62,572 nucleotides of DNA. Source: a virus. Lineage: Duplodnaviria > Heunggongvirae > Uroviricota > Caudoviricetes. The position numbers and the translations under genes were made by a program. Where the stretch lies: the IMG/VR virus record IMGVR_UViG_2671180890_000001, one strand, 5' to 3'. Shown piece after piece: positions 2,027 to 34,402 of this stretch. Each line of letters opens with the position of its first letter. Position 1 is the first letter of the stretch. Below the pieces are notes generated by a model. The model had not been told where the DNA came from. It searched no databases and was given only the letters and a program-made list of their open reading frames with translations.

Positions 2027-2035
2027 GGAAGAAAA

Positions 2036-3076
2036 ATGGCTACATCGACAGTAATTCCTGAAGACATCAAAACGCTAAAATCCGACGTTAGCAAATTAAA
2101 AAACGATCAAGGAAGCTACGCAACAAAATCATATGTAGACAGCAAAGATGAAACCGTTGGTGACTGGTCTGCTTCATGGTATCAGCAGGTATTGCCAACT
2201 AGCGGAGCTATATTTGGGAGAAAACTCCGCTCAACTCACCGGACGGCAGGTGTTGAGGATGCGTATTGCGAACTATACCTCAAAAAATGGATAGACAGTC
2301 CAGGTAACGCAATGGCGCGCCTTAACCTGAACGATAACGGGACAAACATTTGCTGGGACTTTACCAACCTTTATGGCGGTACGATGATTTTTCCCGGTGA
2401 CAGCGGATACCTCAAAATGGGTAACTGCCTTATGTCATACAGCAAGCGTGGAAGTAACGCGCTTATTAAATTTGATTACACCGACACATTACAGATCAAA
2501 TATGCCAATCATGGGTCAACCATGACATTAAACACACAGGGAACCGCTTATGCTGGTGTTACTGCTCAATTGTGGGGCAACTCCAGCCGTCCTGTTGTTT
2601 ATGAAGTCGGTGTTGATGGTGGCGCTTATATGTTCTATGCGCAGAAAAATACCGATAACACCTATATGTTAAGCGTTAATGGTGCATGTCATGCCACCGC
2701 ATTTAACCAGCATTCCGACCGGGATCTGAAAGACAACATTCAGGTGATCGATAATGCAACCGACCGCATCCGTAAAATGAACGGCTATACATACACGCTT
2801 AAAGAAAACGGTATGCCCTATGCTGGTGTCATTGCACAGGAAGCTCTGGAAGCAATCCCAGAAGTTGTAGGTTCCGCAGTGAAATATCAGGACGGTGCAA
2901 GCGGATCGGAAGGTGAAGAAGGTGAACGTTATTACACAGTAGATTATTCTGGTATTACTGGCTTGCTTGTTCAGGTAGCCAGAGAGTCAGACGACAGAAT
3001 AACAGCACTGGAAGAAGAAAACGCAGAATTAAAACAAAGATTATCTGCAATTGAGGCGGCGCTTGCGTCTAAATAA
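2036..3076 (+). CDS. Tail fibre or receptor-binding protein with C-terminal S74-type intramolecular chaperone domain (fold-back copy of 9252..10292)
   Basis: Identical 346 aa translation. Confidence 0.65.
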   Translation: MATSTVIPEDIKTLKSDVSKLKNDQGSYATKSYVDSKDETVGDWSASWYQQVLPTSGAIFGRKLRSTHRTAGVEDAYCELYLKKWIDSPGNAMARLNLNDNGTNICWDFTNLYGGTMIFPGDSGYLKMGNCLMSYSKRGSNALIKFDYTDTLQIKYANHGSTMTLNTQGTAYAGVTAQLWGNSSRPVVYEVGVDGGAYMFYAQKNTDNTYMLSVNGACHATAFNQHSDRDLKDNIQVIDNATDRIRKMNGYTYTLKENGMPYAGVIAQEALEAIPEVVGSAVKYQDGASGSEGEEGERYYTVDYSGITGLLVQVARESDDRITALEEENAELKQRLSAIEAALASK

Positions 3077-3103
3077 TATTAAGGGGCCGAGCGCCCCGTT
3101 TTA

Positions 3104-3412
3104 TTGGGTGGGATGAAAATGGATATAACACCTTTCCTTCATGCACTTTGTGCTGTGGCTGCGCAGGTACTGGTTGGTCTTTTTACCGGAAACTGGGCTT
3201 ACGGAGCGATAGCCGGTTGTACGTTCTTCATTGCGCGTGAACACACCCAGGCAGAATATCGCTGGATTGAAATGTTCGGGCATGGCAAGCGGATTAACAT
3301 GCCGTGGTGGGGCGGTTTTGATCCGCGCGTGTGGGATGTGGCAAGCCTGATGGATTTTGCTGTGCCGGTGGTGGCGTGTCTGCTGGTCTGGCTGTTGGTT
3401 TATCGTGGGTGA
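3104..3412 (+). CDS. Small membrane protein (fold-back copy of 8916..9224)
   Basis: Identical 102 aa translation, hydrophobic segments. Confidence 0.45.
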   Translation: MGGMKMDITPFLHALCAVAAQVLVGLFTGNWAYGAIAGCTFFIAREHTQAEYRWIEMFGHGKRINMPWWGGFDPRVWDVASLMDFAVPVVACLLVWLLVYRG

Positions 3413-3574
3413 AAAAAGGTGAGCTGTATATGCAACGGAGGAAGAAACCCCGTTGCTGGAAGCCTGGAAAAAGTATCGGGTGTTGTTGAATCGTGTTGAT
3501 ACATCACTATCTCCAGATATCGAGTGGCCAAGTCAACCATAAATCAATATCCCCTGCAATGCAGGGGATATTTC

Positions 3575-4540
3575 TTAATTATCAGTAGATTGTTCCTCTA
3601 GTAACAACTCAATTCTGCTTAGTATTTCTTTAGATATTTTTCGGCTATCAATTTTTATAGTTACAAAATTACCTTTATATCTAGCCGTGATCCCTTCCCC
3701 ATATTTTTTCTCGTCTTTTGTTTTTTCCTCGTCGCCAACCAGAACAGAGTCAGATAATATTTGTATAATCCGTGAAGCTTCTAAATCCTCGCCGTTTTTT
3801 TTAATTGCCAGAAGATGATGAGCAGCATTGCTCATGGCAGCCATGTTTTTTTTGTAGACCTTAAACAAAGAATCTCCAGCACGAGCTGACAGTTCTCCTG
3901 GATGATTGAAGATAGCTAATATATCTTTTGGTAGACCAGCTGTATTAATACAGCGAGTGATAATATTTCTGTCTATATTTTCAGCCTCGGCTAATGCTTT
4001 AACGTTACCATCAAAGTCATTTAGCTTGCGTAAGTATCTCTTTCCTCTTTCGTATGCACTAATAGGCCTATAATCGTTACCAATTTGGGATAACCAATGC
4101 ATCTGTTCATCGTCGAGATCACCTATTAAGACGCGATAGTCACATCCTGTTAATATCGCTGCTTTTCTTCTACGTGAGCCGTCAGCGACTTCAACGATTC
4201 CAGACACTTTTCTGGCGAAAGCTGGATTTTGTTGTCCAGACGTTAGAAAAGATGGGATTAAATCGGCTAGAGAGGATTCATTTAATAAATCTTGATCGCG
4301 TTCATTACCTAGCCATACCATTGTTGCCATTTCAACTTTATCTGCGGGAATTGTCTCTAACTTAAAGTTAACATTACGTCCGCATACTGGCAAAGTTATG
4401 CTGTTACCGGTTAATGAACTCAGTTGACGTTTTAAATCACCAACCATAGGTGATACGGGCTGATGTTCAGGGGCATGATGATTATTACTCATAATGCGAT
4501 TAATATCTGGAGCATTTTTTAGAAGAGAGCGCTGTTTCAT
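3575..4540 (-). CDS. sopB: SopB/ParB partition protein (fold-back copy)
   Basis: Identical to 7788..8753(+). Confidence 0.85.
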   Translation of the reverse strand: MKQRSLLKNAPDINRIMSNNHHAPEHQPVSPMVGDLKRQLSSLTGNSITLPVCGRNVNFKLETIPADKVEMATMVWLGNERDQDLLNESSLADLIPSFLTSGQQNPAFARKVSGIVEVADGSRRRKAAILTGCDYRVLIGDLDDEQMHWLSQIGNDYRPISAYERGKRYLRKLNDFDGNVKALAEAENIDRNIITRCINTAGLPKDILAIFNHPGELSARAGDSLFKVYKKNMAAMSNAAHHLLAIKKNGEDLEASRIIQILSDSVLVGDEEKTKDEKKYGEGITARYKGNFVTIKIDSRKISKEILSRIELLLEEQSTDN

Positions 4541-5707
4541 TATTCGTTCTCCCAGCGAGGTTTTATTAGATCATCAAAAATTTCTCGGCAAACAGGGTCC
4601 CATATAGAAACAGCATTTCTCCATGCATTCAATGTTGAACGTTGGTTTGCTGCTTGTTCAAATACTGTTCTCATTTTTATCTGGCCTTTACCTACTTCAT
4701 CGGTAACGCGTACAACCTGACGTAATACCATTGATCCCCATGTATTTCTTATTTGTTCTTCCATCCATCGTGATTGATTCCCTGTAGTGAGACTATATTT
4801 AGTCAGAAGTAAGCGAACGGTTGGCTCAAATCCACCTAGGTCAACGCTTTCCAATAGATCGAGAAGCATTGTGAAAAAACTGTAGAACAGAAGCGTAATC
4901 AAATAATTCTGCAGGTGTAGCAACAACAATAACGTCAGCGGCACAAACAACGTTAATGGTTCCTGTACCGAGGTTCGGAGCACTATCTATAACGATAACA
5001 TCGTAGTTATCCCAAACTGATTCAATAGCTGCGCGCAGCATAAGGTGTGGAGGATGAGGCAATTTACCCTGAGCATGATATTGCATGAGATCTGTTTCTA
5101 TACGATGTAAAGCTAGGCAGCTAGGGATAATGTCTAGCCCAGGCCAACATGTTGGCTTTATAGCATATTCAGCGTTATCGCGTTCTCCTAAGTAAAATGG
5201 CAGTAAAGTATCCTCGGCATGGATATGTAAATCAGGAACATAACCGTGATACATAGAGGCCGTGCCTTGAGGATCGTTACCTTCAACCAAAAGAACACGA
5301 TGACCTTGTAATGCTAACCATTGAGCTTGATGTACCGCAGACGATGTTTTATAAACGCCGCCTTTGTGTGACATAACGGCAAGCACAACAGGGTTTTTAT
5401 CTTGTGGTCGTTGGTTTGGGTTGCCAAAAACTGCTCGCATACTGTTGATTTGATCTATGGTATAACCAGCACGACGTTCAATTCTTCCTCTCATTTCAAA
5501 GTCAGGTGCAGGTAAACGCCCGCTCTTCTCAGCATCTCTAATTGCTTGAGGAGTTACACCAATTAAATCTGCTACTTCAGTTATACCCCATCGGCGGGTG
5601 ATACGCCGAGCTTCAGGACTATCATCACCGAATTGAGCGATAGCAATTGCTTGGGTCATTTCTTGACCTCTCGTAACACAATCTTGCAATAACTTTTTCA
5701 AAGACAT
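4540..5707 (-). pseudogene. sopA: SopA/ParA partition ATPase, fold-back copy with a 1-nt homopolymer frameshift (A6 here versus T5 in the primary copy near 7450)
   Basis: ORFs 4841..5707 and 4540..4983 together reproduce the 388 aa SopA of 6622..7788 in two frames. Confidence 0.8.
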
Positions 5708-6143
5708 ACTGTCATCTCCAGCTTGTAACTTTGCTTAATAATTAAATCTTTGCTTATTTCTAGCAAATTTGCATGAAAAAGGCAAAGCAAAACGAAAAAC
5801 GCAAAGGTGAATATTTGAGCTAAATCATCTTTTGTTCCCCTCCCGAAATGCATAAAACGAACAACGATATAATCATAACTAATTGATATTTATTATCTTT
5901 TTTAAAGAAAGGAAATCATGTAAAACTAGGGAAACATGATAAGAATCATCAATGAGATACGTTTTCTCTATTAGTTCTCCCAATCTTACCAATACGAGAA
6001 CATAAACAGAGAACATAAAAATCAAGTAATGATACAAACACAATAAAGAACATAAATAAAGAATTAAAACCAATGCTAAATAAAGCAGTACATAATATGA
6101 GAACATTACACCAAATGAGAACATTAATCAAGAACACAACGAA

Positions 6144-6185
6144 ACATAATTCCCCATTATACGTGCGTATAATGGGGAATTATGT
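6144..6185. repeat. Left hairpin telomere (telL) read-through: 20 bp arms around a non-self-complementary TG centre at 6164-6165
   Basis: ACATAATTCCCCATTATACG-TG-CGTATAATGGGGAATTATGT; arms closely resemble the N15 telO palindrome. Confidence 0.85.
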
Positions 6186-6189
6186 TTCG

Positions 6190-6460
6190 TTGTGTTCTTG
6201 ATTAATGTTCTCATTTGGTGTAATGTTCTCATATTATGTACTGCTTTATTTAGCATTGGTTTTAATTCTTTATTTATGTTCTTTATTGTGTTTGTATCAT
6301 TACTTGATTTTTATGTTCTCTGTTTATGTTCTCGTATTGGTAAGATTGGGAGAACTAATAGAGAAAACGTATCTCATTGATGATTCTTATCATGTTTCCC
6401 TAGTTTTACATGATTTCCTTTCTTTAAAAAAGATAATAAATATCAATTAGTTATGATTAT
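6190..6460. promoter_or_regulatory. AT-rich iteron array (about 6 copies of TATGTTCTC-like motif) between telL and sopA; candidate sop promoter or protelomerase/partition protein binding region
   Basis: Repeated ATGTTCTC / GTTGTGTTCT motifs read directly; the predicted ORFs here are mirror-symmetric and low complexity. Confidence 0.35.
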
Positions 6461-6621
6461 ATCGTTGTTCGTTTTATGCATTTCGGGAGGGGAACAAAAG
6501 ATGATTTAGCTCAAATATTCACCTTTGCGTTTTTCGTTTTGCTTTGCCTTTTTCATGCAAATTTGCTAGAAATAAGCAAAGATTTAATTATTAAGCAAAG
6601 TTACAAGCTGGAGATGACAGT

Positions 6622-7788
6622 ATGTCTTTGAAAAAGTTATTGCAAGATTGTGTTACGAGAGGTCAAGAAATGACCCAAGCAATTGCTATCGCTCAATTCG
6701 GTGATGATAGTCCTGAAGCTCGGCGTATCACCCGCCGATGGGGTATAACTGAAGTAGCAGATTTAATTGGTGTAACTCCTCAAGCAATTAGAGATGCTGA
6801 GAAGAGCGGGCGTTTACCTGCACCTGACTTTGAAATGAGAGGAAGAATTGAACGTCGTGCTGGTTATACCATAGATCAAATCAACAGTATGCGAGCAGTT
6901 TTTGGCAACCCAAACCAACGACCACAAGATAAAAACCCTGTTGTGCTTGCCGTTATGTCACACAAAGGCGGCGTTTATAAAACATCGTCTGCGGTACATC
7001 AAGCTCAATGGTTAGCATTACAAGGTCATCGTGTTCTTTTGGTTGAAGGTAACGATCCTCAAGGCACGGCCTCTATGTATCACGGTTATGTTCCTGATTT
7101 ACATATCCATGCCGAGGATACTTTACTGCCATTTTACTTAGGAGAACGCGATAACGCTGAATATGCTATAAAGCCAACATGTTGGCCTGGGCTAGACATT
7201 ATCCCTAGCTGCCTAGCTTTACATCGTATAGAAACAGATCTCATGCAATATCATGCTCAGGGTAAATTGCCTCATCCTCCACACCTTATGCTGCGCGCAG
7301 CTATTGAATCAGTTTGGGATAACTACGATGTTATCGTTATAGATAGTGCTCCGAACCTCGGTACAGGAACCATTAACGTTGTTTGTGCCGCTGACGTTAT
7401 TGTTGTTGCTACACCTGCAGAATTATTTGATTACGCTTCTGTTCTACAGTTTTTCACAATGCTTCTCGATCTATTGGAAAGCGTTGACCTAGGTGGATTT
7501 GAGCCAACCGTTCGCTTACTTCTGACTAAATATAGTCTCACTACAGGGAATCAATCACGATGGATGGAAGAACAAATAAGAAATACATGGGGATCAATGG
7601 TATTACGTCAGGTTGTACGCGTTACCGATGAAGTAGGTAAAGGCCAGATAAAAATGAGAACAGTATTTGAACAAGCAGCAAACCAACGTTCAACATTGAA
7701 TGCATGGAGAAATGCTGTTTCTATATGGGACCCTGTTTGCCGAGAAATTTTTGATGATCTAATAAAACCTCGCTGGGAGAACGAATAA
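6622..7788 (+). CDS. sopA: SopA/ParA partition ATPase, F-plasmid SopA type
   Basis: 388 aa; Walker-type KGGVYKTS motif; near full-length resemblance to F SopA (from memory). Confidence 0.95.
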   Translation: MSLKKLLQDCVTRGQEMTQAIAIAQFGDDSPEARRITRRWGITEVADLIGVTPQAIRDAEKSGRLPAPDFEMRGRIERRAGYTIDQINSMRAVFGNPNQRPQDKNPVVLAVMSHKGGVYKTSSAVHQAQWLALQGHRVLLVEGNDPQGTASMYHGYVPDLHIHAEDTLLPFYLGERDNAEYAIKPTCWPGLDIIPSCLALHRIETDLMQYHAQGKLPHPPHLMLRAAIESVWDNYDVIVIDSAPNLGTGTINVVCAADVIVVATPAELFDYASVLQFFTMLLDLLESVDLGGFEPTVRLLLTKYSLTTGNQSRWMEEQIRNTWGSMVLRQVVRVTDEVGKGQIKMRTVFEQAANQRSTLNAWRNAVSIWDPVCREIFDDLIKPRWENE

Positions 7789-8753
7789 TGAAACAGCGCT
7801 CTCTTCTAAAAAATGCTCCAGATATTAATCGCATTATGAGTAATAATCATCATGCCCCTGAACATCAGCCCGTATCACCTATGGTTGGTGATTTAAAACG
7901 TCAACTGAGTTCATTAACCGGTAACAGCATAACTTTGCCAGTATGCGGACGTAATGTTAACTTTAAGTTAGAGACAATTCCCGCAGATAAAGTTGAAATG
8001 GCAACAATGGTATGGCTAGGTAATGAACGCGATCAAGATTTATTAAATGAATCCTCTCTAGCCGATTTAATCCCATCTTTTCTAACGTCTGGACAACAAA
8101 ATCCAGCTTTCGCCAGAAAAGTGTCTGGAATCGTTGAAGTCGCTGACGGCTCACGTAGAAGAAAAGCAGCGATATTAACAGGATGTGACTATCGCGTCTT
8201 AATAGGTGATCTCGACGATGAACAGATGCATTGGTTATCCCAAATTGGTAACGATTATAGGCCTATTAGTGCATACGAAAGAGGAAAGAGATACTTACGC
8301 AAGCTAAATGACTTTGATGGTAACGTTAAAGCATTAGCCGAGGCTGAAAATATAGACAGAAATATTATCACTCGCTGTATTAATACAGCTGGTCTACCAA
8401 AAGATATATTAGCTATCTTCAATCATCCAGGAGAACTGTCAGCTCGTGCTGGAGATTCTTTGTTTAAGGTCTACAAAAAAAACATGGCTGCCATGAGCAA
8501 TGCTGCTCATCATCTTCTGGCAATTAAAAAAAACGGCGAGGATTTAGAAGCTTCACGGATTATACAAATATTATCTGACTCTGTTCTGGTTGGCGACGAG
8601 GAAAAAACAAAAGACGAGAAAAAATATGGGGAAGGGATCACGGCTAGATATAAAGGTAATTTTGTAACTATAAAAATTGATAGCCGAAAAATATCTAAAG
8701 AAATACTAAGCAGAATTGAGTTGTTACTAGAGGAACAATCTACTGATAATTAA
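7788..8753 (+). CDS. sopB: SopB/ParB centromere-binding protein
   Basis: 321 aa; ParB motif GSRRRKAA; start overlaps sopA stop (TAATGA). Confidence 0.9.
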   Translation: MKQRSLLKNAPDINRIMSNNHHAPEHQPVSPMVGDLKRQLSSLTGNSITLPVCGRNVNFKLETIPADKVEMATMVWLGNERDQDLLNESSLADLIPSFLTSGQQNPAFARKVSGIVEVADGSRRRKAAILTGCDYRVLIGDLDDEQMHWLSQIGNDYRPISAYERGKRYLRKLNDFDGNVKALAEAENIDRNIITRCINTAGLPKDILAIFNHPGELSARAGDSLFKVYKKNMAAMSNAAHHLLAIKKNGEDLEASRIIQILSDSVLVGDEEKTKDEKKYGEGITARYKGNFVTIKIDSRKISKEILSRIELLLEEQSTDN

Positions 8754-8754
8754 G

Positions 8755-8783
8755 AAATATCCCCTGCATTGCAGGGGATATTG
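8755..8783. terminator. Bidirectional hairpin terminator after sopB
   Basis: Perfect inverted repeat ATATCCCCTGC-A-TTGCAGGGGATAT. Confidence 0.5.
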
Positions 8784-8915
8784 ATTTATGGTTGACTTGG
8801 CCACTCGATATCTGGAGATAGTGATGTATCAACACGATTCAACAACACCCGATACTTTTTCCAGGCTTCCAGCAACGGGGTTTCTTCCTCCGTTGCATAT
8901 ACAGCTCACCTTTTT

Positions 8916-9224
8916 TCACCCACGATAAACCAACAGCCAGACCAGCAGACACGCCACCACCGGCACAGCAAAATCCATCAGGCTTGCCACATCCCACACG
9001 CGCGGATCAAAACCGCCCCACCACGGCATGTTAATCCGCTTGCCATGCCCGAACATTTCAATCCAGCGATATTCTGCCTGGGTGTGTTCACGCGCAATGA
9101 AGAACGTACAACCGGCTATCGCTCCGTAAGCCCAGTTTCCGGTAAAAAGACCAACCAGTACCTGCGCAGCCACAGCACAAAGTGCATGAAGGAAAGGTGT
9201 TATATCCATTTTCATCCCACCCAA
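8916..9224 (-). CDS. Small integral membrane protein, function unknown
   Basis: 102 aa ORF with hydrophobic segments; start uncertain. Confidence 0.45.
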   Translation of the reverse strand: MGGMKMDITPFLHALCAVAAQVLVGLFTGNWAYGAIAGCTFFIAREHTQAEYRWIEMFGHGKRINMPWWGGFDPRVWDVASLMDFAVPVVACLLVWLLVYRG

Positions 9225-9251
9225 TAAAACGGGGCGCTCGGCCCCTTAATA

Positions 9252-10292
9252 TTATTTAGACGCAAGCGCCGCCTCAATTGCAGATAATCTTTGTTTTAAT
9301 TCTGCGTTTTCTTCTTCCAGTGCTGTTATTCTGTCGTCTGACTCTCTGGCTACCTGAACAAGCAAGCCAGTAATACCAGAATAATCTACTGTGTAATAAC
9401 GTTCACCTTCTTCACCTTCCGATCCGCTTGCACCGTCCTGATATTTCACTGCGGAACCTACAACTTCTGGGATTGCTTCCAGAGCTTCCTGTGCAATGAC
9501 ACCAGCATAGGGCATACCGTTTTCTTTAAGCGTGTATGTATAGCCGTTCATTTTACGGATGCGGTCGGTTGCATTATCGATCACCTGAATGTTGTCTTTC
9601 AGATCCCGGTCGGAATGCTGGTTAAATGCGGTGGCATGACATGCACCATTAACGCTTAACATATAGGTGTTATCGGTATTTTTCTGCGCATAGAACATAT
9701 AAGCGCCACCATCAACACCGACTTCATAAACAACAGGACGGCTGGAGTTGCCCCACAATTGAGCAGTAACACCAGCATAAGCGGTTCCCTGTGTGTTTAA
9801 TGTCATGGTTGACCCATGATTGGCATATTTGATCTGTAATGTGTCGGTGTAATCAAATTTAATAAGCGCGTTACTTCCACGCTTGCTGTATGACATAAGG
9901 CAGTTACCCATTTTGAGGTATCCGCTGTCACCGGGAAAAATCATCGTACCGCCATAAAGGTTGGTAAAGTCCCAGCAAATGTTTGTCCCGTTATCGTTCA
10001 GGTTAAGGCGCGCCATTGCGTTACCTGGACTGTCTATCCATTTTTTGAGGTATAGTTCGCAATACGCATCCTCAACACCTGCCGTCCGGTGAGTTGAGCG
10101 GAGTTTTCTCCCAAATATAGCTCCGCTAGTTGGCAATACCTGCTGATACCATGAAGCAGACCAGTCACCAACGGTTTCATCTTTGCTGTCTACATATGAT
10201 TTTGTTGCGTAGCTTCCTTGATCGTTTTTTAATTTGCTAACGTCGGATTTTAGCGTTTTGATGTCTTCAGGAATTACTGTCGATGTAGCCAT
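9252..10292 (-). CDS. Second tail fibre or receptor-binding protein with C-terminal peptidase S74-type intramolecular chaperone domain
   Basis: 346 aa; C-terminal SDRDLKDNI ... YTVDYSGITGLLVQ ... coiled-coil tail typical of auto-cleaving fibre chaperone domains. Confidence 0.7.
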   Translation of the reverse strand: MATSTVIPEDIKTLKSDVSKLKNDQGSYATKSYVDSKDETVGDWSASWYQQVLPTSGAIFGRKLRSTHRTAGVEDAYCELYLKKWIDSPGNAMARLNLNDNGTNICWDFTNLYGGTMIFPGDSGYLKMGNCLMSYSKRGSNALIKFDYTDTLQIKYANHGSTMTLNTQGTAYAGVTAQLWGNSSRPVVYEVGVDGGAYMFYAQKNTDNTYMLSVNGACHATAFNQHSDRDLKDNIQVIDNATDRIRKMNGYTYTLKENGMPYAGVIAQEALEAIPEVVGSAVKYQDGASGSEGEEGERYYTVDYSGITGLLVQVARESDDRITALEEENAELKQRLSAIEAALASK

Positions 10293-10301
10293 TTTTCTTC
10301 C

Positions 10302-10583
10302 TCACATCCAGCCACGAAGTTGATGCTCAACAGCAACCACGTATTCATCGAATATTGACGATTTTTTTGCATCATTAATGATGCGCACGTTTACAAAATA
10401 TCCGTCTTCCTTAACACATACCGGCTCGCCATCTTCAGTAAGTTCTCCGGTTTCTTTGTACACGTTACCTATCACGTCAATAAGAATATCATCCTGCATC
10501 GACTCGTCATCATAATAGCCAATACTCTCCATAAAGGCCGAAAAGTCGGCCCTGTCGGCAAATTTGAGTGTTAAATCTTTCAT
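10302..10583 (-). CDS. Hypothetical acidic protein between the two fibre genes
   Basis: 93 aa ORF; start overlaps stf stop. Confidence 0.5.
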   Translation of the reverse strand: MKDLTLKFADRADFSAFMESIGYYDDESMQDDILIDVIGNVYKETGELTEDGEPVCVKEDGYFVNVRIINDAKKSSIFDEYVVAVEHQLRGWM

Positions 10584-12964
10584 TAGATTGACTCCCCCAC
10601 CTGAGCATCAGTCAATGCCTTGTGCCATATTCTGAAATTCCTGACATGACCAAATAAATGACGTAACCCGGCTGTAGTCTGGCCTCCAATACGGATAATT
10701 GCGGTGTTCTGAATACAGGACCATGTGGTTTTTGTTTCGCTGGATATACGCCCGTTACTTACTGAGCACGTAGACTGATCTGACTTTACACGCATCCCCA
10801 TAACCATTTTTTCAAGCGATGCGTTTTCGTTTACCCGTCTGTTAGCTCCTCCAATATCGCAATAAGGAAATCCGTCGTAATCTGCTGAAGAACCGAAGCC
10901 AAGAATAATAGCCGCTCCGGTTTGATGACCGCCGGTATCAAAAACACGCGGCGCTGCATTTGGCGTTTTATACCAGTTCTTATGTACCTCACAAAGAACC
11001 GTAAAAGGAAGATTATAAAAATTATTCTTAATGGGAACTGTAACTATATCGCTTGCGCGGGTCGCCGCCGTCGTTCCTGATATAATAAAAGATGATACAC
11101 AAGGCCCATTTTCTACTTGTGGGGTGGCCAGATAAATATAGTCACCAGATACGGTTGCCCCGCCCTGCTTAGGAGAATACTGTATCTGAGAACCTATTTT
11201 TAACTCCCCATCAATTGCCTGAATTGTTGCCTCTGCAAAAATCCATCCGGTAGCTTCGTCCTTTCTGACTCTCGCTGTAATCCTTGAGGCAGCACCGCCT
11301 GTCATATTAATTTCAAGCGTTTGTGTATCAATATACGCATCACCAAGAAAAGTTGTTGCGCTACCGTCATATTTATCAAACCGGATACGCAACCTTACCT
11401 GCAGTTCTGTTTTAAAACGACATGAGGTTGTCACATATTTATTATCGCCTGAGACATCAACTGACTTTGTTGCAGCAATTGATGCCATATTAATGGCTGA
11501 GGTTTGCCCAATCAGAGAATCGTTGCAGACAAACTTTCCATAGGTAAAACCAAAATTATCCGTCCCTGTTTCGGGCACATCCATATTTGACGATCGCCCC
11601 CAACTGGCAGGGCTTTCCGAATTGAGCATGTAGTTTGTTCTTTGCCCCTCAATAAGCAGACCATCACGTTCAAATCGTGGCTCGTCAATGGCAGCCTCTG
11701 TCAGCACACCAGATTTGTTAATATAGGTTGCTTTCGATGCACGTTTAAACTTAACAATCTTGTCGCCAGGCATCGTTATTTCATCGTCACCAATAACAAT
11801 TTTTTTATATGATGGCGAAAAGCCCGTAATCATATCCAGCGAATCGTTAAATGGTATCCACACATCAGGCAGCGGCTGTAAGACATATTTATACGGCTCC
11901 GCAGCCTGGCTTGCGTACTCTCTGGCTGCATCTTCGCTTGCTTTAGCTGCCGTCTGGCTTGCTGCCGATGCTTTCGCTGAGTTCGCAGCCGCTGTTTCGC
12001 TCACCTTTGCGTTGGTTTCACTGGTTTTTGCTGCTTTTTGACTGTTAGCTGATGCAGTGGCAGAAGCAGCCGCCGCGCTTGCAGAACTGGCTGCGGCACT
12101 CTCGCTTTGGGCCGCTGCATCCTGACTGCTTTTCGCCGCAGTTTCACTGGCTTTGGCATTCGTTTCGCTGGTCTTCGCTGCCGTCTGGCTGGACTTTGCG
12201 TTAGTTTCACTCGTCTTCGCAGCTTTCTGGCTGTTAGCCGCAGCAGTTGCTGATCCAGCTGCTGAAGTCGCAGAACCGGCTGCCGCGCTCTCGCTTTGGG
12301 CTGCTGCAACCTGGCTGTTTTTTGCTGCAGTTTCACTGGCTTTAGCATTCGTTTCGCTGGTCTTCGCTGCCGTCTGGCTGGACTTTGCGTTGGTTTCGCT
12401 CGTCTTTGCGGCTGTCTCGCTATTTTTCGCGTTGGTTTCTGATTTTTTAGCTGCTGTCGCGGAGTTTGCCGATGCAGTCTGTGAGGTCGCTGCCGCCTGT
12501 GCGCTGTTAGCTGCATTCGTTTCTGAGGTTTTCGCCGCGTTCTTCGATGATGCCGCTGCAGTTTCGGATTTCTTTGCCGCCGCTGCGCTCTGAGAAGCGG
12601 CTTCGGCGTTGCGTGCCGCTTCTTCCACCATTTCCTGAAAACGGCGCAATGCCTCCGGCATGACATCATCTTCCGTCATGGCACCGAGAAAATCATTCAG
12701 CGTACCTGGTCTGGAGCCTTCATAGACGGTAATGGTCCCGGCATGTGAAGGCGGAAAACCTTCAACCAGCAGGGTGACGCTGTACTGGCCATACTCAACA
12801 TCCATGCTGTAACGCCCGGCTTCATCAGGATTTTCAGAGGCCACCGTGTTCACCAGTACCGTGGTGCTGTTACGCTTTGCCTTCAGTTGAATAGTGCAGT
12901 TCTGTATTGGTTTTCCCGCACCATCTTTCAGCACACCTGAGATTTTTACTGCTGCCATATCCAC
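10583..12964 (-). CDS. stf: Side tail fibre protein: lambda Stf-like N-terminus, Ala/Ser-rich tandem repeats, divergent C-terminal domain
   Basis: 793 aa; N-terminal KISGVLKDG...SHAGTITVYE as in lambda Stf; repeats of KTSETNAKxSxTAA. Confidence 0.85.
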   Translation of the reverse strand: MDMAAVKISGVLKDGAGKPIQNCTIQLKAKRNSTTVLVNTVASENPDEAGRYSMDVEYGQYSVTLLVEGFPPSHAGTITVYEGSRPGTLNDFLGAMTEDDVMPEALRRFQEMVEEAARNAEAASQSAAAAKKSETAAASSKNAAKTSETNAANSAQAAATSQTASANSATAAKKSETNAKNSETAAKTSETNAKSSQTAAKTSETNAKASETAAKNSQVAAAQSESAAAGSATSAAGSATAAANSQKAAKTSETNAKSSQTAAKTSETNAKASETAAKSSQDAAAQSESAAASSASAAAASATASANSQKAAKTSETNAKVSETAAANSAKASAASQTAAKASEDAAREYASQAAEPYKYVLQPLPDVWIPFNDSLDMITGFSPSYKKIVIGDDEITMPGDKIVKFKRASKATYINKSGVLTEAAIDEPRFERDGLLIEGQRTNYMLNSESPASWGRSSNMDVPETGTDNFGFTYGKFVCNDSLIGQTSAINMASIAATKSVDVSGDNKYVTTSCRFKTELQVRLRIRFDKYDGSATTFLGDAYIDTQTLEINMTGGAASRITARVRKDEATGWIFAEATIQAIDGELKIGSQIQYSPKQGGATVSGDYIYLATPQVENGPCVSSFIISGTTAATRASDIVTVPIKNNFYNLPFTVLCEVHKNWYKTPNAAPRVFDTGGHQTGAAIILGFGSSADYDGFPYCDIGGANRRVNENASLEKMVMGMRVKSDQSTCSVSNGRISSETKTTWSCIQNTAIIRIGGQTTAGLRHLFGHVRNFRIWHKALTDAQVGESI

Positions 12965-13022: not shown

Positions 13023-13622
13023 TCAGAATTTATAACCGACACCCACGATGAAACCGTCAGTGCGCCAGTCACCACTGCCGGAGCCTTCATAAGCAATATC
13101 AATGGCCACGGATTCGGTCGGGTTAAACTGCACGCCAGCCCCCCACGCCAGAGACGTGTTGCTGTGGCGACCGTCATCACTTCCGGTCAGCACATCGTGC
13201 GTTTTCCCCTTGCTGTCAGTTACGCGGAGATAATCCCCGGAAAAAGTCGAAACACGGCTGTAAGCCACACCTGCCATCGCATAAGCACTGAACCATTCAT
13301 TCACGCGTACAGACGGCCCCGCCATCATGCTGAACCAGCGGTTACGCACTGAATCTTCATGCCAGCGGGTATCGCTGTAATGCGTTTTTTGCTCATCTTT
13401 GGCATTGGCATAACTGAATGACGTCACCAGCCCCAGCGTGTCCGTAAATTCATAACGGTATTTCACGTTAATGCCCTTCAGGTCATCGTTGCCGGGCATA
13501 TCAGTATGGGTCTGAAGATACCCGGCGCTTAGTGTGGACTGATGCTCTGCTGCGCTCGCTGGCGTACCAGCGGCGACCAGCCAGACTACTGTGGACAGAA
13601 TAACAGCACATAATTTACGCAT
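13023..13622 (-). CDS. lom: Lom-family outer membrane protein (Ail/Lom)
   Basis: 199 aa; signal peptide; C-terminal AYEGSGSGDWRTDGFIVGVGYKF as in lambda Lom. Confidence 0.85.
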   Translation of the reverse strand: MRKLCAVILSTVVWLVAAGTPASAAEHQSTLSAGYLQTHTDMPGNDDLKGINVKYRYEFTDTLGLVTSFSYANAKDEQKTHYSDTRWHEDSVRNRWFSMMAGPSVRVNEWFSAYAMAGVAYSRVSTFSGDYLRVTDSKGKTHDVLTGSDDGRHSNTSLAWGAGVQFNPTESVAIDIAYEGSGSGDWRTDGFIVGVGYKF

Positions 13623-13635: not shown

Positions 13636-13668
13636 TTTTCTGCAATAAAAAAGGCGCCATTTCTGGCG
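13636..13668 (-). terminator. Rho-independent terminator downstream of J
   Basis: GGCGCCA-TTTC-TGGCGCC hairpin followed by a T-run on the minus strand. Confidence 0.45.
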
Positions 13669-13689
13669 CCCGTATCTGGGTTATAAAAT

Positions 13690-16600
13690 TCAGCTGATAC
13701 TGATGCCTGCAGTGGCTTTCTTCATCACAACAACCAGCAAATCGCTGATACTTGCTGTGGGATACCAGCCATTTACCCACCATGCTGATACAGAAAACTC
13801 CAGTGTCATTACGCCACTGCCTGCAGGCATATCAATAACACCCGTGTAAATCAGAGTATTATCCAGAGCCGTTCGGTTATAAATTTCAGCCCCGTTTTTC
13901 TTCACTATCAGGCGGCATGACGAATAAGTATCGCTATTCTCCCGTTCATGTCTGGCACCGCTGAAAGCCACCGCTGGAATAACAATTTGCCGGTCAAACG
14001 GCTGATCGTCATAAACCCTGACGGTAATGGTCCCTGATGGCCACCGCTCCGGTGCACGGGAGTCCCGGGGGAAAGCTTTGCCCACTGTTTTAACGAGATC
14101 GCCTTCAATCTGGTTCGCGGACAGTTTTCCCAGAACCCGACAGTTCTCGTTAATCGTGACGTTGTTGAGCGTCCCGGAGTTCGCATTCACGCTACCGCTG
14201 ATATCGGCATTTTTCGCCGTCAGCCGCCCGTCCGGTGTCAGGGAAAATGCCGGAGGATTACCGCCGCTGGTAATGGTGGGAGCCGTCAGATATTTCAGGA
14301 ACACTTCATTCATGAATATCTGGTTGCCCTGCGCCACAAACATCGGCGTTTCATTCCCGTTTGCCGGGTCAATAAACGCGATACGGTTAGCGGCAACCAG
14401 GAACTGACTCAGTTTGCCTTCCTCCGTATCCTCCATGCTGAGGCCAAGCCCCGCGACATAATGTTTGCCGTCTTTGGTCTGCTCAATTTTGACGCCCCAC
14501 ATGGCATTCCATTTATCGTTGGCATCTTTCCACTCTTTCGAAAACTCATCCAGTCTGCTGGCGTTATCCTCCGTCAGGTCGACTTTTTCCAGCAGCTCCT
14601 TGCCGAGATGGGATTCGGTTATCTGGCCTTTGAAAAAATCCAGGTAACCTTCTGCATCATCGCTCGCCCGACCGACAGCCTCCACGAATGCCGATTTGCC
14701 AACGGTGTTCACACTGCGGATGTAAAAATAATAATCATGGCCCGGCTTGATATTGATACTGGCGGCTATCCAGTACAGCGCCGTACCAAGATAACGTGCG
14801 CTGGTTTCAACCTGCCTGATATCCGTAATCCGCTTTTCCGAGAACCAGAACTCAAACTGTACCGTCGGATCATAAACGGCAAGATGCGGCGTTGCGGTTA
14901 TCTGAAAATAGCCCGGCGTCAGCTCAATCCGCGACGGTGCTGCCGGTGCGGCAATCCGGAACGATACCGACGCCGGATCTCCCTGCTGCCCCCACGCATT
15001 TACCGCCCGGACTGTCAGCCTGTAGTTCCCCAGCGCCAGTTGCGTGAAGCGGTATGTGGTTTCCGTCGTCCGGGCCGTGCTGACCAGCCGCTCACTGCCG
15101 TCGTCCGCTGTTACGGTCAGACGGAGCAGGAAGCTCACGCCCTTCACCACCTTCGGTGTGTCCCATCGCGCCAGCACCTGATATTCCCCGCTGTCTGCAG
15201 TGACTTCTGCGGTCAGGTGCTGCACCGCTGGCGGCGTGACACCGTTCACCGTGCCACTCTGTTCGCCGTCAAAGTGCGCCCCGTTATCCACGATGGCCTC
15301 TTTTTCCGGCACATGCTGCACGGCGGTGATGGCATACGTGCCGTCGTCGTTCTCACGGATACTCACGCAGCGGAACAGTCGCTGGCGCAGCGTCGGCAGC
15401 TTCAGCCCCCATACGCTGTATTCAGCAACACCGTCAGGAACACGGCTCACTTTTACCTTCACGCCGTCGGTGACGGACTGAACCTCCACGCTGACCGGAT
15501 TGCCACTTCCGTCAACCAGGCTTATCAGCGTGGTACCGGAGGATGGCAGCGTGATTTCACGGTCGAGCGTCAGCGTCCGGGTCTGGCTGTTCACCGCCAG
15601 CACACGACCACCGGTGCTGATACCGGCATAGTCATCATCACAGATTTCAATAACATCGCCCGGTACATGGCGAAGCCCTTCTGCGCCGACGCTGAAATCC
15701 ACGGTCTGCGTTTCCAGCAGTTCTGTTTTAATCAGCCACAGCCCGGCGCGGTGTGCCTGCCCCCGGCTGGTACAGCCAAAGGCGTCCATCTTCGTGACGT
15801 TACGACCGTAACGGAGAATGGCCTGCGTATCTTCAACAAGCTCTGTCGCCGTCTCCCAGCCGTTGTTCGGGTCAATCCAGTTCACCTCAACGGCATTATG
15901 GCGGTCCTTCAGGGCGCTGAAACTGTAGCGGAACGGCGCGCCATCATCCGGCATCACCACATTACTGCGGTTATAGGTCCACACCTTATCCGACGGCCGG
16001 TCCTGCACGAACGTCAGCGTCTGCCCGTTCCATACCGGCATACAGCGCATCGCCGAGCAGAAATCACTGAGCACATCCCACGCCTTGCGCTGTGTGGTCA
16101 GGTAAGCGTTACAGGTGATGCGCGGCTCCGTGCCGCCAAAGCCGTCCGGCACCGACTGGTCGCAGTACTGGCCGATGACATACAGCGCCCATTTATCCAC
16201 ATCCGCCGCACCAAGACGTTTCCCCATGCCGTAGCGCGGATGGGTCAGCATATCCCACAGACACCAGGCCATGTTGTTGCTGTATGCCGGTTTAAACGTC
16301 CCGTCCCAGATACCGCTGTATTGCCGCGTCTGCGGGTTATAGTTCGACGGCACCTGCAGAATGCGCCCGCGAAGATGATAATTACGGCTCACCTGCTGGC
16401 TGCCGAACTGCTCCGAATCCACCTGTACGCCGACCAGTGCCGTGTTCGGGTAGCCCTGTTTCACATCGATGATTTCGGTGTATGACGACCAGAGCGTTTT
16501 GTTCTGCAGCTGGTCTGTGGTGCTGTCCGGCGTCATCCTGCGCATCCGGATATTAAACGGGCGCGGCGGCAGGTTATCCACCACCACCGAGGCCAGATAC

Positions 16601-17085
16601 TGCGAGGTGGTTTTGCCCTTAATGGTGATGTCTTTTTCTGTCACCCAGCCACCGTTACGCTGTATCTGAACCAGCAGGCGGACTTCCGATGGATTCCTGT
16701 CCCCCTTTGAGGTGGTTTCCACCAGTGCCTGCACACCGAAGGTAAAGCGCAGACGGTCGATGTTTGCCGACGTGATGGTCCGGGTGATCGGCGTGTCATA
16801 TTTCACTTCCGTACCCAGCACCGTCTCGGAACCGGAGGATTCAAATCCCTCCGGCGGTGTCTGCTCCTGCTCACCTGCCCGGAACACCACCGTGACACCG
16901 GAGATGTTGGTATTCCCCTCACTGTCCAGCACCGGTGTACTGTTCAGCAGCACGCTTTTTAATCCATCCACCGGACCTTCAATCGGCCCTTCGCTGATGG
17001 CATCGATCACACTCAGTAACTGCGTGGATTTCAGGTTATCCTTCGCTTCGCGCGGGGTATGCCCCTTACTGCTGCCTTTACCCAT
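13690..17085 (-). CDS. J: Tail tip / host specificity protein J with a non-lambda C-terminal receptor-binding region
   Basis: 1131 aa; lambda J-like from [19 protein letters not shown] through about residue 980, then divergent last ~150 aa. Confidence 0.95.
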
Positions 17086-17145
17086 TCGTCATGCTCCATA
17101 AACGACAAAACCGCCCGGAGGCGGTTTCACATAAAACATTTTGCA

Positions 17146-17817
17146 TCAGCGACCAATCACCACAACCTGACCACCGTCCCCTTCGTCTGCCGTGCTGATC
17201 TCCTGAGAAACCACCCGCGACCCCACACGCATTTCACCGTACAGAACAGGCAGAACATTGCCCTGAGCAACCATGTTATCCAGTGAGGAAAAATAGGTGT
17301 TCTGTTTGCCGTTATCCGTTGTCTGTGTACGGGGAGTTCTGGCTTTCGGTGCCAGCATCTGCGCCACACCACCGAGCACCATACTGGCACCGAGAGAAAA
17401 CAGGATGCCGGTCATACCACCGGCCCCAATGGCTGCCCCCCATGCTGCAAGGGTGGCTCCGGCAGTAAAGAATGATCCGGCAATGGCGGCAGCTCCCAGG
17501 ACAATCTGGAATACACCACCTGACTTGGCCCCGGCGACTCTGGGAACAATATGAATCACAGCGCCATCAGGCAGAGTCTCATGTAACTGCGCCGTTAATC
17601 CGGACGTGCTGACATCCCGCCCGGCAATCCGTACCTGATACCAGCCGTCGCTCAGTTTCTGACGAAACGCCGGGAGCTGTGTGGCCAGTGCGCGGATGGC
17701 TTCAGCCCCCGTTTTCACACGAAGGTCGATGCGGCGGCCAAATCGTTGCAAATCCCCGTAAAGGCAGATGCGTGCCATTCCCGGTGACGCCAGAGGGAGT
17801 GTGTGCGTCGCTGCCAT
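17146..17817 (-). CDS. I: Tail assembly protein I
   Basis: 223 aa, lambda I-like. Confidence 0.9.
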   Translation of the reverse strand: MAATHTLPLASPGMARICLYGDLQRFGRRIDLRVKTGAEAIRALATQLPAFRQKLSDGWYQVRIAGRDVSTSGLTAQLHETLPDGAVIHIVPRVAGAKSGGVFQIVLGAAAIAGSFFTAGATLAAWGAAIGAGGMTGILFSLGASMVLGGVAQMLAPKARTPRTQTTDNGKQNTYFSSLDNMVAQGNVLPVLYGEMRVGSRVVSQEISTADEGDGGQVVVIGR

Positions 17818-18458
17818 TTGTCGGTATACCTCTCTCGTTTACTCAGTTGTTCAGGAATATGGTGCAGCAGCTCGCCATCACCACAGTAAATGGCGGCATG
17901 ATTCGGCACCGATGAACCAAAGCAGCACAGCAGCACGTCGCCAGGCTGCGCCTCTGTCAGTGCGACACGGTAAAAACCAGTCGCCTCCATATTGTCAAGA
18001 TAGAGATTCTGACCGTTACGCCACCAGTCATCCCCGCGATGAAAATCCGGCATCTCAATCCCCGCCAGATGATAAGCATCCCGGAACAGCGTGTAACAGT
18101 CCGTCACCCCGTGCTCAAAGCGACGCCCGGTGAGATGCGGCACACAGCGGAACTTGTGAATCGCCCCCCGGCAGACCAGCCACCACGGCAAATCACTCTG
18201 CACCTGCAGCCGCCGGTCAGCCTCACTCAGCCAGGGCAGACCACCGGGATGACTGTGGACCAGTGCCACAATCTCACCCTGCATCTCTGCCTGCAGCCAG
18301 TCCTCCGGAGCCATCCGGAAATAATCCTCCGGCTCACCGGAGATATTCACGCAGGGGAAATATCTTTCCCCCTCCGGCGCTCTCACCACGAAGCCGCACG
18401 ACTCCGCTGGCGCACATCGCCGGGCGTGCGCCAGAATCGCTGATTCTGTCTCTGTCAT
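17715..18458 (-). CDS. K: Tail assembly protein K (NlpC/P60-like)
   Basis: Lambda K-like; ORF start may be upstream of the true start. Confidence 0.85.
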   Translation of the reverse strand: MTETESAILAHARRCAPAESCGFVVRAPEGERYFPCVNISGEPEDYFRMAPEDWLQAEMQGEIVALVHSHPGGLPWLSEADRRLQVQSDLPWWLVCRGAIHKFRCVPHLTGRRFEHGVTDCYTLFRDAYHLAGIEMPDFHRGDDWWRNGQNLYLDNMEATGFYRVALTEAQPGDVLLCCFGSSVPNHAAIYCGDGELLHHIPEQLSKRERYTDKWQRRTHSLWRHREWHASAFTGICNDLAAASTFV

Positions 18459-18463
18459 GGGAT

Positions 18464-19162
18464 TTACTGCGAAAGTTTGTTAATGGAAAGGAAGCCGCCA
18501 AAGTTGCCGACGTTATTGCGAAACTTACAGCCGCTCAGGCATTTGCTGCATTTATCCTTCGTGATATCGGACGTTGGCTGGTCATATTCATCCGCGACAG
18601 CCGGACCGCTATAACCGCACTCGTCACCGCGATAGGTCCAGGTGCAGGTGTTGGCCAGCATGATACGTCCCGGAAAAACAGCGCCATCCGTTTCCGTCGG
18701 CGTGGACAGTACAAAGGAGGCACTCACCGCGCTCAGTTCGCTGCACTGCTCAATGCGCCAGCGGCTGATCACCTCCTGCTCCGGATCGGCGTAACTGTTT
18801 CCGTTGACGAAGTTCACCGCATCCAGAAAACGGGCGTAAACCTTACGCCGGACCACCGTTCCGCCGACCAGACTCTGCATATCTTCCGCCATCCCGGTGA
18901 CCATACCGTACAGGTTAGAAACCGTCAGCGTGGGGCGCGTACTGGTGCCTTTGCCATTCAGTTCAAAACCGCTCCCCTGAATGGGATACGGCTGATACTG
19001 TCGCCCCTGCCAGGTGACCGGCTCACCTTTTTCGTTCTGCTCATTACAGAAAAAATAACGTTCTCCACCGACCTCTGTCAGATCGATTTCCCAGAGCACC
19101 ACGCTGGCCGACTGCTCCGCACGGGTGCATTCATTCAGTGTTTCCTGCCGGATATCCTGCAT
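18464..19162 (-). CDS. L: Minor tail protein L
   Basis: 232 aa, lambda L-like. Confidence 0.9.
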   Translation of the reverse strand: MQDIRQETLNECTRAEQSASVVLWEIDLTEVGGERYFFCNEQNEKGEPVTWQGRQYQPYPIQGSGFELNGKGTSTRPTLTVSNLYGMVTGMAEDMQSLVGGTVVRRKVYARFLDAVNFVNGNSYADPEQEVISRWRIEQCSELSAVSASFVLSTPTETDGAVFPGRIMLANTCTWTYRGDECGYSGPAVADEYDQPTSDITKDKCSKCLSGCKFRNNVGNFGGFLSINKLSQ

Positions 19163-32600: not shown

Positions 32601-32685
32601 CGCCGGAAAGGACCCGCAAAGATGAGAATAATTATTACTTGCATTAATATCCGGCTTCTTCCACCATCGCACCGGACGGGCGACT

Positions 32686-34378: not shown

Positions 34379-34402
34379 CAAAACCTCCTGACAAAGATAC
34401 CG

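Follow-up and report, generated by a model that had tools for sequence, protein, structure and literature searches.

Gene J and its surroundings

The window, by which we mean the whole stretch of phage DNA that was analyzed (62,572 nucleotides), carries on its minus strand an intact gene J in the setting known from the tail module of phage lambda, with L, K, and I before it and lom and stf after it. The features in and downstream of J are as follows.

13690..17085, minus strand: gene J (tail-tip or central tail fiber protein), 1,131 amino acids, intact (open reading frame list and Pfam)
13652..13671, minus strand: terminator-like hairpin directly 3' of the J stop codon (consensus match only)
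13023..13622, minus strand: lom, Ail/Lom outer membrane protein (PF06316, E = 3.5e-126)
10583..12964, minus strand: stf, side tail fiber protein, 793 amino acids (PF08400, phage_tail_N, E = 4.4e-66)

A Pfam profile search recovered six gpJ domains in J, all above the gathering score and in the lambda order (FNIII-A_GpJ, Phage-tail_3, Ig_J, Ig_J_second, Phage_Tail_Tip, and Ig_GpJ_C). The exact protein is already present in NCBI as WP_061158088.1 and AML08170.1, under the name "host specificity protein J." Positions 14140 to 18591 of the window are 95.9% identical to lambda positions 14000 to 18451, which comprise the end of L followed by K, I, and J. Past J, DNA similarity to lambda returns only at window positions 13150 to 12606 (83%), and the lom product has also diverged from lambda Lom, with 45% amino acid identity. 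The hairpin behind J has an 8-bp stem with six G-C pairs and is followed by TTTTT. The side tail fiber encoded by stf is a second, independent adsorption determinant. Two open reading frames that overlap J in other frames (14027..14407, plus strand, and 13908..14186, minus strand) had no PHROG family match and were rejected as spurious. The window as a whole is an N15-like linear plasmid prophage whose hairpin ends were read through by the assembler. These ends would lie at 6166 and 54545, making the linear plasmid about 48.4 kb long.

Where the likeness to lambda J ends

Compared with lambda J (J02459, positions 15505 to 18903) by BLASTP, the window protein showed 1,021 identities over 1,131 positions, with one one-residue gap. 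Counted over 30-residue windows, residues 1 to 960 were identical to lambda at 940 of 960 positions (97.9%), versus 81 of 172 (47%) for residues 961 to 1132 and 58 of 142 (41%) for residues 991 to 1132. At the DNA level, the megablast match to lambda was 96.5% over nucleotides 1 to 2946 of the gene and then ended, and identity in 150-nucleotide windows went from 91 to 99% in the body through 69% to 53 to 55% in the tip. The gene can thus be divided into three parts.

14166..17085, minus strand: lambda-like J body, approximately residues 1 to 973, with hub, FNIII and Ig domains, helical shaft, and beta-prism fiber
14139..14165, minus strand: mosaic breakpoint zone, gene nucleotides 2921 to 2947, approximately residues 974 to 983, where mismatches to lambda turn dense
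13690..14138, minus strand: divergent receptor-binding module of the 1A2/VT1-Sakai class, residues 983 to 1131 plus the stop codon

The breakpoint zone lies just past a conserved stretch of 19 residues. This stretch, near lambda residue 964, is the neighborhood of the graft point used by Brodel et al. (Nature 2024, PMC11338833), who fused natural gpJ C termini to lambda gpJ at residue 964; one of their chimeras is 1A2. An earlier note on this DNA had described J as lambda-like for about 980 residues and divergent over the last 150 or so, which is correct, with identity falling from 97.9% to approximately 41% across the breakpoint at 14139 to 14165. The interval to which that note assigned the change covers the divergent part, and the peptide it quoted occurs verbatim in the J open reading frame. 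Its further statement that the tip diverges completely was wrong, since the tip is a homologous allele that aligns to lambda with the single one-residue gap and matches a family profile. That profile, Ig_GpJ_C (PF12421, [quoted passage not shown]), matched residues 1001 to 1131 with an E value of 2.9e-37. The match scored 128.2 bits, where the curated cut-off is 26.2, and spanned profile positions 1 to 135 of 135. The tip also has motifs in common with lambda, among them PFDRQIV, DMPAG, and KK..GIS. Judged by its sequence, the J tip is a different natural allele of lambda's own receptor-binding domain.

Could the divergence have arisen in assembly or sequencing? The record visibly contains long-read artifacts, with an inverted second pass of about 14 kb around the hairpin ends, and small indels set one pass apart from the other, the one checked example being a difference in homopolymer length. 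J, however, lies within the single-copy part of the window (12755 to 46939), and its reading frame is open throughout. Moreover, the divergent 451 nucleotides occur with 100% identity in five other complete Escherichia coli genomes, and with at least 99% identity in 200 records. The five identical copies refute an artifact, to which we give practically no weight.

The amino acid identity of the tip was 97.7% to that of phage PhiR47_1, 92.5% to VT1-Sakai, 66.9% to A8 (PDB 9wca), and 48% to lambda. The 1A2 tip was rebuilt from published DNA, available as OCR-damaged PDF text, by frameshift-aware protein-to-DNA alignment that left seven residues unread; the A8 comparison used the clean PDB sequence. 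The reconstructed 1A2 tip is the VT1-Sakai allele, matching it at 174 of 185 positions, with seven of the remainder being OCR gaps. The window and 1A2 tips are of equal length, without indels, and differ at 12 of 173 aligned residues (window residue first: S965N, R1045K, R1048K, N1050H, S1051T, T1053I, K1062R, S1090H, V1092H, W1103L, G1106N, and S1129T). Nine of the 12 differences fall in three short stretches, at residues 1045 to 1053, 1090 to 1092, and 1103 to 1106. When the 13 differences from VT1-Sakai were compared with the hypervariable columns of five allele classes, 7 of 13 fell in such columns versus an expectation of 61 of 173 (hypergeometric P = 0.12). This is not significant, and we therefore claim no clustering beyond the description of the three short stretches.

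DNA related to the J tip is present in 3,371 of 5,426 complete E. coli genomes, and E. coli carries the allele class of the window far more often than that of lambda, so that lambda and the phage in the window can equally well be called the variant. The sequence does not show in which direction the tip was replaced, and any direction given to it would be conjectural. A 2018 study of 1,207 natural J homologs described residues 960 to 1132 as modular and independently exchanged (PMC6646904). The body and the tip of J have separate histories because lambdoid phages exchange the region from about residue 960 to the end as a module.

Phages PhiR47_1 and 2G7b are like the window element in joining a lambda-like J body to a 1A2-class tip across the full gene, with 96.1% and 94.8% nucleotide identity, respectively, to the window J over all 3,396 nucleotides, and in carrying lom and stf downstream of J. 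PhiR47_1 differs in having an integrase beside its tail fiber genes, whereas the window element is a telomere phage-plasmid. These relatives bear on whether J belongs to a defective element with no role in adsorption, so that the divergent tip would have no effect on host range. Many database relatives of the tip are indeed frameshifted or truncated, and J of VT1-Sakai is annotated as truncated by mutation. The window J, however, is a full-length open reading frame with six domains; the adjoining L, K, and I region matches lambda at 96% identity; and a protelomerase, a RepA-sized primase-like open reading frame, and SopAB-like partition genes are present. PhiR47_1, with its closely matching tip, and PhiR46_1, which has the same backbone, have both been isolated as phages that form plaques. 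We therefore regard a defective origin as very improbable.

Predicted fold and probable receptor of the tip

The structure prediction proposed in the earlier note gave an Ig-like beta-sandwich of the kind seen in the lambda and A8 domains. The AlphaFold2 monomer model of the tip is all-beta, with a pLDDT of 81.6, and Foldseek aligned it to PDB entries 9wca, 9wcb, 8xck, and 8xcj with TM scores of 0.72 to 0.75 (E = 1.5e-19 to 9.1e-18). By sequence, the best PDB match to J was 9wca, "A8 gpJ 713" (E = 2e-149). Three variable regions were located on the tip.

14035..14073, minus strand: variable loop 1, residues 1005 to 1017, the same as in 1A2; a non-strand segment between strands 998 to 1003 and 1018 to 1026 in the model
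13927..13959, minus strand: variable hairpin, residues 1043 to 1053, differing from VT1-Sakai at five positions (1045, 1048, 1050, 1051, and 1053) of 13 in total
13747..13824, minus strand: variable segments, residues 1088 to 1093 (AGSGVM) and 1101 to 1113, with four differences from 1A2 (1090, 1092, 1103, and 1106)

Loop 1 is variable and rich in indels across allele classes. The hairpin is likewise an indel site between classes, and indels at residues 1048 to 1049 have been reported among natural J homologs (PMC6646904). In the model, residues 1103 to 1115 form a long stretch outside any strand. In sequence, segments 1005 to 1017, 1043 to 1053, and 1101 to 1113 are unrelated to lambda's loops; to equate them with the published L1 to L4 numbering of lambda would be a tentative step resting on the model.

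What is known of the 1A2 chimera points to the receptor. It delivered DNA into more than 90% of MG1655 cells carrying the OmpC of E. coli EDL933, into approximately 5% of wild-type MG1655 at a multiplicity of infection of 50, where LamB and K-12 OmpC are present, and into approximately 2% with K-12 OmpC (PMC11338833). The earlier note had reasoned that a swapped J tip implies a receptor other than LamB, and this is supported by the nearly identical 1A2 tip, which uses EDL933 OmpC and not LamB. The window thus holds an intact lambda-family J with a natural 1A2/VT1-Sakai-class tip, and we consider it likely that its receptor is OmpC rather than LamB. By analogy with 1A2, the exact allele in the window would be specific for OmpC, and would probably be limited to certain OmpC alleles, accepting the EDL933 type but not that of K-12. 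The host ompC allele is absent from the window. The GenBank phages with a 1A2-class tip have ECOR13 or E. coli C as listed hosts, and none has MG1655, which fits, as weak evidence, the failure of 1A2 on K-12 OmpC. A full-text literature search for PhiR47_1 by name gave no match. The PhiR phages reportedly come from Brenes and Laub in 2025. For these phages, the SNIPE paper (Nature 2026) gives ManYZ dependence only and no receptors. A receptor-prediction preprint of 2026 deals with GpJ of the Drexlerviridae type and explicitly leaves the lambda tip out of its alignment.

The 12 differences from 1A2 leave room for a change in fine specificity, or even in the porin used, because two of the three stretches adjoin lambda positions at which one or two substitutions suffice to switch the porin used. 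We think it possible, although on the improbable side, that these substitutions make the window allele, which is shared with PhiR47_1 and 200 genome records, a distinct specificity subtype that recognizes a different set of OmpC alleles or an additional porin. If so, the 1A2 class would be a natural series for mapping how few loop changes retune the recognition of porin alleles. An alternative, that the substitutions make the tip bind a different outer membrane protein from 1A2, such as OmpF, PhoE, OmpN, another porin, or LamB, seems to us unlikely. It draws on lambda J, in which changes at a few positions, with 1012 and 1107 critical, add the use of OmpF (PMC6646904); differences 1090, 1092, 1103, and 1106 lie near the equivalent of 1107, and five more are in the 1045-to-1053 hairpin. 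For J of Gifsy-1, furthermore, binding to OmpC, OmpX, and BtuB has been reported, and tips of the gpJ family can therefore be promiscuous. Against this, the window tip is 92 to 93% identical to a tip with a demonstrated requirement for OmpC, loop 1 is the same in both, and even A8, at 67% identity, uses OmpC. The differences are also not enriched in hypervariable columns, and for LamB in particular, the tip is just 41 to 48% identical to the LamB-binding tip of lambda.

With OmpC as the likely receptor, a trigger mechanism can be proposed from lambda, in which loops L1 to L4 enter LamB, the receptor-binding domain opens, and the fiber rearranges (PMC11101478). By analogy, three copies of the tip domain would stand at the end of the central fiber, and their distal loops would enter the extracellular mouth of the trimeric porin. 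Binding of the porin would push the tip domains apart, and this spreading would pass up the fiber, leading to the opening of the tail tip and the ejection of DNA. We infer this sequence of events for the window J from the lambda system.

The J tip finding is real but ordinary, in that the tip is a common and already described alternative. Exchange of the J specificity region (2018) is already known. That a 1A2-class tip redirects J from LamB to OmpC has been demonstrated as well and put to use in phage-vector engineering, and a related tip has already been solved on OmpC. The value of the finding lies in annotation, where adsorption of the phage-plasmid via OmpC, probably of non-K-12 alleles, and not via LamB would be predicted. 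This prediction bears on the choice of indicator strain for the phage-plasmid, and the window allele offers a ready natural variant for mapping how tips of the 1A2 class discriminate between OmpC alleles.

Comparison with known systems

The 1A2 chimera has the same architecture as the window J, a lambda body and a 1A2-class domain joined near residue 964, and the two tips are 92 to 93% identical. However, 1A2 is an engineered graft, whereas the window J occurs naturally. Among solved structures, the closest is A8 gpJ 713, available closed (9wca) and open with OmpC G17 of E. coli EDL933 (9wcb). The tip of this OmpC binder has the same domain and predicted fold as the window tip, with 64 to 67% identity and a TM score of 0.72, but it belongs to another allele class (4A7, BP-4795). 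Compared with the window tip, its loop 1 is shorter by 4 residues, and its hairpin carries 5 additional residues at 1048 to 1051. A8 also accepts K-12 OmpC, whereas 1A2 does not (PMC11338833).

Lambda gpJ (8iyk, 8k35, 8xcj, and 8xck) shares with the window protein its family, its domain order, and an Ig-like fold (TM score of 0.74 to 0.75 for the predicted structure), and its trigger mechanism is presumably common to both. Its tip, however, binds LamB (8xcj, "gpJ713-LamB complex") and is only 41 to 48% identical to the window tip, which lacks lambda-like sequence in the distal loops that enter LamB.

Phage N15 resembles the window element in lifestyle, with a protelomerase, a telRL-like site, and sop partition genes. 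N15 depends on FhuA. Its tail tip fiber, gp21, is only 32% identical to the window J, over residues 4 to 836, and was rejected as a relative of the tip, having no detectable homology to the C-terminal domain in the window. The two also differ in what follows, N15 having cor (superinfection exclusion) downstream of gp21 and the window element having lom directly after J.

The J tip and the lambda receptor-binding domain

The peptide quoted in an earlier note on this DNA is present in the product of J, whose gene and downstream neighbors are laid out as follows.

13690-17085, minus strand: J, tip attachment protein, open reading frame of 1,131 amino acids
13671-13652, minus strand: terminator-like hairpin, GC-rich with a T tract, directly after the J stop codon
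13023-13622, minus strand: lom, Ail/Lom family, 45% identical to lambda Lom
12996-12975, minus strand: terminator-like hairpin, GC-rich with a T tract, directly after lom
10583-12964, minus strand: stf, side tail fiber, 793 amino acids, with a long Ala/Ser/Thr-rich region of degenerate repeats (...AAKTSETNAKSSQTAAKTSETNAK...)
10302-10583, minus strand: 93-amino-acid protein of unassigned function (phrog_1361), downstream of stf
9252-10292, minus strand: tail fiber protein of 346 amino acids with a C-terminal Peptidase_S74 intramolecular chaperone domain

Upstream of J, the end of L followed by K and I matches lambda DNA at about 96%. The protein contains six Pfam domains in the lambda order (FNIII-A_GpJ, Phage-tail_3, Ig_J, Ig_J_second, Phage_Tail_Tip, and Ig_GpJ_C), all six well above their gathering cutoffs. 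Two open reading frames overlapping the tip region, 14027 to 14407 (plus) and 13908 to 14186 (minus), had no PHROG family match and are regarded as spurious. The hairpins at the ends of J and lom bracket lom; four terminator-like sites lie within 1.5 kb, where shuffled sequence would be expected to give 1.3. Within stf, internal DNA repeats at 12005 to 12232 and 12194 to 12421 are 84% identical and lie in a region of strong AT skew. The two genes that follow stf point to a second fiber or adhesin module.

In a BLASTP alignment with lambda J there were 1,021 identities over the 1,131 residues and a single one-residue gap, but identity was unevenly spread, at 97.9% over residues 1 to 960, 47% over 961 to 1132, and 41% over 991 to 1132. 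At the DNA level, megablast matched lambda over gene nucleotides 1 to 2946 at 96.5% and dropped out beyond, while identity in 150-nucleotide windows fell from 91 to 99% to 69% and then to 53 to 55%; dense mismatches begin at gene nucleotides 2921 to 2947 (14139 to 14165 in the window). The earlier note was thus right about the site and the sharpness of the loss of similarity. Its statement that J "diverges completely" beyond this point does not hold, however, as the J tail aligns almost without gaps to lambda and matches PF12421, the gpJ "C-terminal receptor binding domain," over the whole length of the profile (E = 2.9e-37). Several motifs are also common to the J tail and lambda J. The J tail is the lambda domain in a divergent allelic form, not an unrelated replacement; the feature is real, and its description was slightly overstated.

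Receptor of the J tip

The best sequence match of J among solved structures is A8 gpJ 713 (9wca/9wcb; E = 2e-149 over 299 residues), which ranks ahead of lambda gpJ. A8 and 1A2 are chimeras in which natural gpJ C-termini were fused to lambda gpJ at residue 964 (Brodel et al., Nature 2024, PMC11338833), a graft point that fits the breakpoint in the window, which lies some ten residues beyond it. The C-terminal 173 residues, modeled with AlphaFold2 (pLDDT 81.6), were all-beta, and the model matched the closed A8 fiber (9wca), the [quoted passage not shown] (9wcb), the closed lambda fiber (8xck), and the lambda fiber on LamB (8xcj), with TM scores of 0.72 to 0.75 and E values of about 1e-18 to 1e-19. 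Long non-strand segments of the model at 1004 to 1017 and 1103 to 1115 and a hairpin tip near 1049 to 1050 coincide with indel-rich variable segments of the gpJ family, and likewise with lambda positions 1012 and 1107 and the natural indels at 1048 to 1049. When lambda gained OmpF use in the laboratory, changes at positions 1012 and 1107 were critical (Maddamsetti et al. 2018, PMC6646904).

The A8 chimera delivered DNA via OmpC of both MG1655 and EDL933, and the 1A2 chimera delivered efficiently only via the EDL933 OmpC variant (PMC11338833). In the source data of that study, 1A2 gave about 5% delivery at an MOI of 50 into wild-type MG1655, in which LamB is present, about 2% with K-12 OmpC in a strain without lamB and ompC, and over 90% into MG1655 carrying EDL933 OmpC. 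The DNA text in the supplement contained OCR indels, and the 1A2 tip was recovered by frameshift-aware protein-to-DNA alignment. The recovered tip equals the J tip of phage VT1-Sakai at 174 of 185 positions, 7 of the remainder being unreadable codons. The window tip differs from that of VT1-Sakai at 13 of 173 positions, with no indels. At 12 of these (965, 1045, 1048, 1050, 1051, 1053, 1062, 1090, 1092, 1103, 1106, and 1129) 1A2 agrees with VT1-Sakai, and at position 1081 it agrees with the window. Loop 1 is identical in the window tip and 1A2.

OmpC use is therefore documented for two relatives of the window tip, by function for the one at 92 to 93% identity and by structure for the one at 64 to 67%, and the J protein of Gifsy-1 is also a reported OmpC user. 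Phages of this tip class have ECOR13 or E. coli C, never MG1655, as their GenBank hosts, which fits, circumstantially, the failure of 1A2 on K-12 OmpC. Taken together, these relationships make OmpC the probable receptor of the window tip, and they support the proposal in the earlier note that the swapped C-terminus implies a receptor other than LamB. The twelve differences from 1A2 could mean a shifted range of OmpC alleles or, less likely, use of another porin. Nine of them fall within three short stretches (1045 to 1053, 1090 to 1092, and 1103 to 1106), leaving room for either outcome; the 13 differences from VT1-Sakai were not significantly enriched in columns that are hypervariable across the family (7 of 13, P = 0.12).

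In lambda, four distal loops of the C-terminal Ig-like domain enter the lumen of the LamB trimer on its extracellular side. The tip opens after the three domains have parted at the bottom, the beta-prism fiber has twisted, and the helical shaft has folded back (PMC11101478). The A8 entries comprise analogous closed and open states. By homology, the window J would go through a similar series of events, with OmpC, the favored receptor, replacing LamB.

Distribution of the tip allele and its exchange

When the last 163 residues of J were compared with 50,697 phage records in a translated search, tips of at least 92% identity were found in PhiR47_1 (98.2%), PhiR46_1, PhiR5_1, VT1-Sakai, many Stx2a phages, and PPompW prophages. 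A second band at 61 to 65% held 4A7, BP-4795, Lambda_2G7a, and YYZ-2008, followed by Fels-1 (48%), lambda (44.8%), and the h434/mEp332/cdtI group (about 43%). Over the tip region, 2G7b is 91.8% identical in DNA and 93.6% in protein. Among database relatives of the tip, many are fragments with frameshifts, and for the VT1-Sakai J gene (AP000400.1, 11228 to 13648), which has the 1A2-type tip, the annotation gives truncation by a mutation.

The whole gene, lambda-like body and tip together, recurs in PhiR47_1 (96.1% over 3,396 nucleotides) and 2G7b (94.8%), so this pairing circulates in nature. NCBI lists the identical protein as WP_061158088.1/AML08170.1, "host specificity protein J." DNA related to the divergent 451 nucleotides (at least about 80% identity) occurs in 3,371 of 5,426 complete E. 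coli genomes, and 200 records have the segment at 99% identity or more, five at 100%. By frequency, the rarer form is the LamB-type tip of lambda.

No lambda similarity was detected at the blastn level from the J breakpoint to the 3' part of lom; it returns, at 83%, only in that part and the start of stf (13150 to 12606). The mosaic patch thus comprises the J tip and most of lom. An analysis of 1,207 natural J homologues had called J residues 960 to 1132 "an evolutionary module," with recombination independent of the remainder of the protein (Maddamsetti et al. 2018, PMC6646904), so the phenomenon was already described, and the interpretation in the earlier note was correct but already known.

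The element that carries J

Positions 1 to 12331 and 46940 to 62151 are each their own reverse complement, centered near 6166 and 54545, and positions 62152 to 62572 mirror 12332 to 12754. The window, an entire 62,572-bp public contig, thereby runs round both ends of about 48.4 kb of unique sequence (6166 to 54545) and back. The following features lie at or near the centers.

54517-54573 and 6137-6193: telRL-like site, CCCCATTATACG(CA/TG)CGTATAATGGGG, resembling telRL, the telomere site of the linear plasmid prophage N15
6622-7788 and 7788-8753, plus strand: SopA/SopB-like (ParA/SopB-like) partition pair, adjoining the 6166 center
44924-48919, plus strand: primase-like open reading frame of 1,331 amino acids, some 6 kb inward from the 54545 end; its Toprim and origin-binding-protein matches are weak, both near or below Pfam cutoffs
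52460-54355, minus strand (mirrored at 54738-56633, plus strand): protelomerase of 631 amino acids with TelK_N, muzzle, catalytic, and stirrup domains, adjoining the 54545 center

The centers read CCCCATTATACGCACGTATAATGGGG and the complement form with TACGTGCGTA, close to the N15 telRL core CCCATTATACGCGCGTATAATGG. They are mutual reverse complements in the central dinucleotide, as expected of two hairpins from one site. The window is not a chromosomal lambda prophage. Most simply, it is read as an N15-like linear plasmid prophage of about 48.4 kb, the palindromes looking like the product of a long-read assembler reading through covalently closed hairpin ends. Small indels separate the two arms of each palindrome, and the one example checked was a difference in homopolymer length. 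The mirrored blocks meet abruptly at 62151/62152. J lies in the single-copy part and is unaffected by the read-through. Elsewhere, a 172-bp direct repeat (32656 to 32827 and 34441 to 34611, 91% identity) lies in a region with two 373-amino-acid open reading frames (33518 to 34639 and 36311 to 37432).

The replication and telomere arm has relatives in PhiR46_1 (98%) and YDC107_1 (96%), many E. coli plasmids of 46 to 48 kb are further relatives, and the element belongs to the known N15-like family of E. coli phage-plasmids. Several plasmid records of 61 to 91 kb have two or more matching places, perhaps because of the same hairpin read-through artifact. The C-terminus of the N15 tail tip protein is unrelated to that of the window J, and the element thus combines the lifestyle of N15 with a tail of the lambda type, not of the N15 type.
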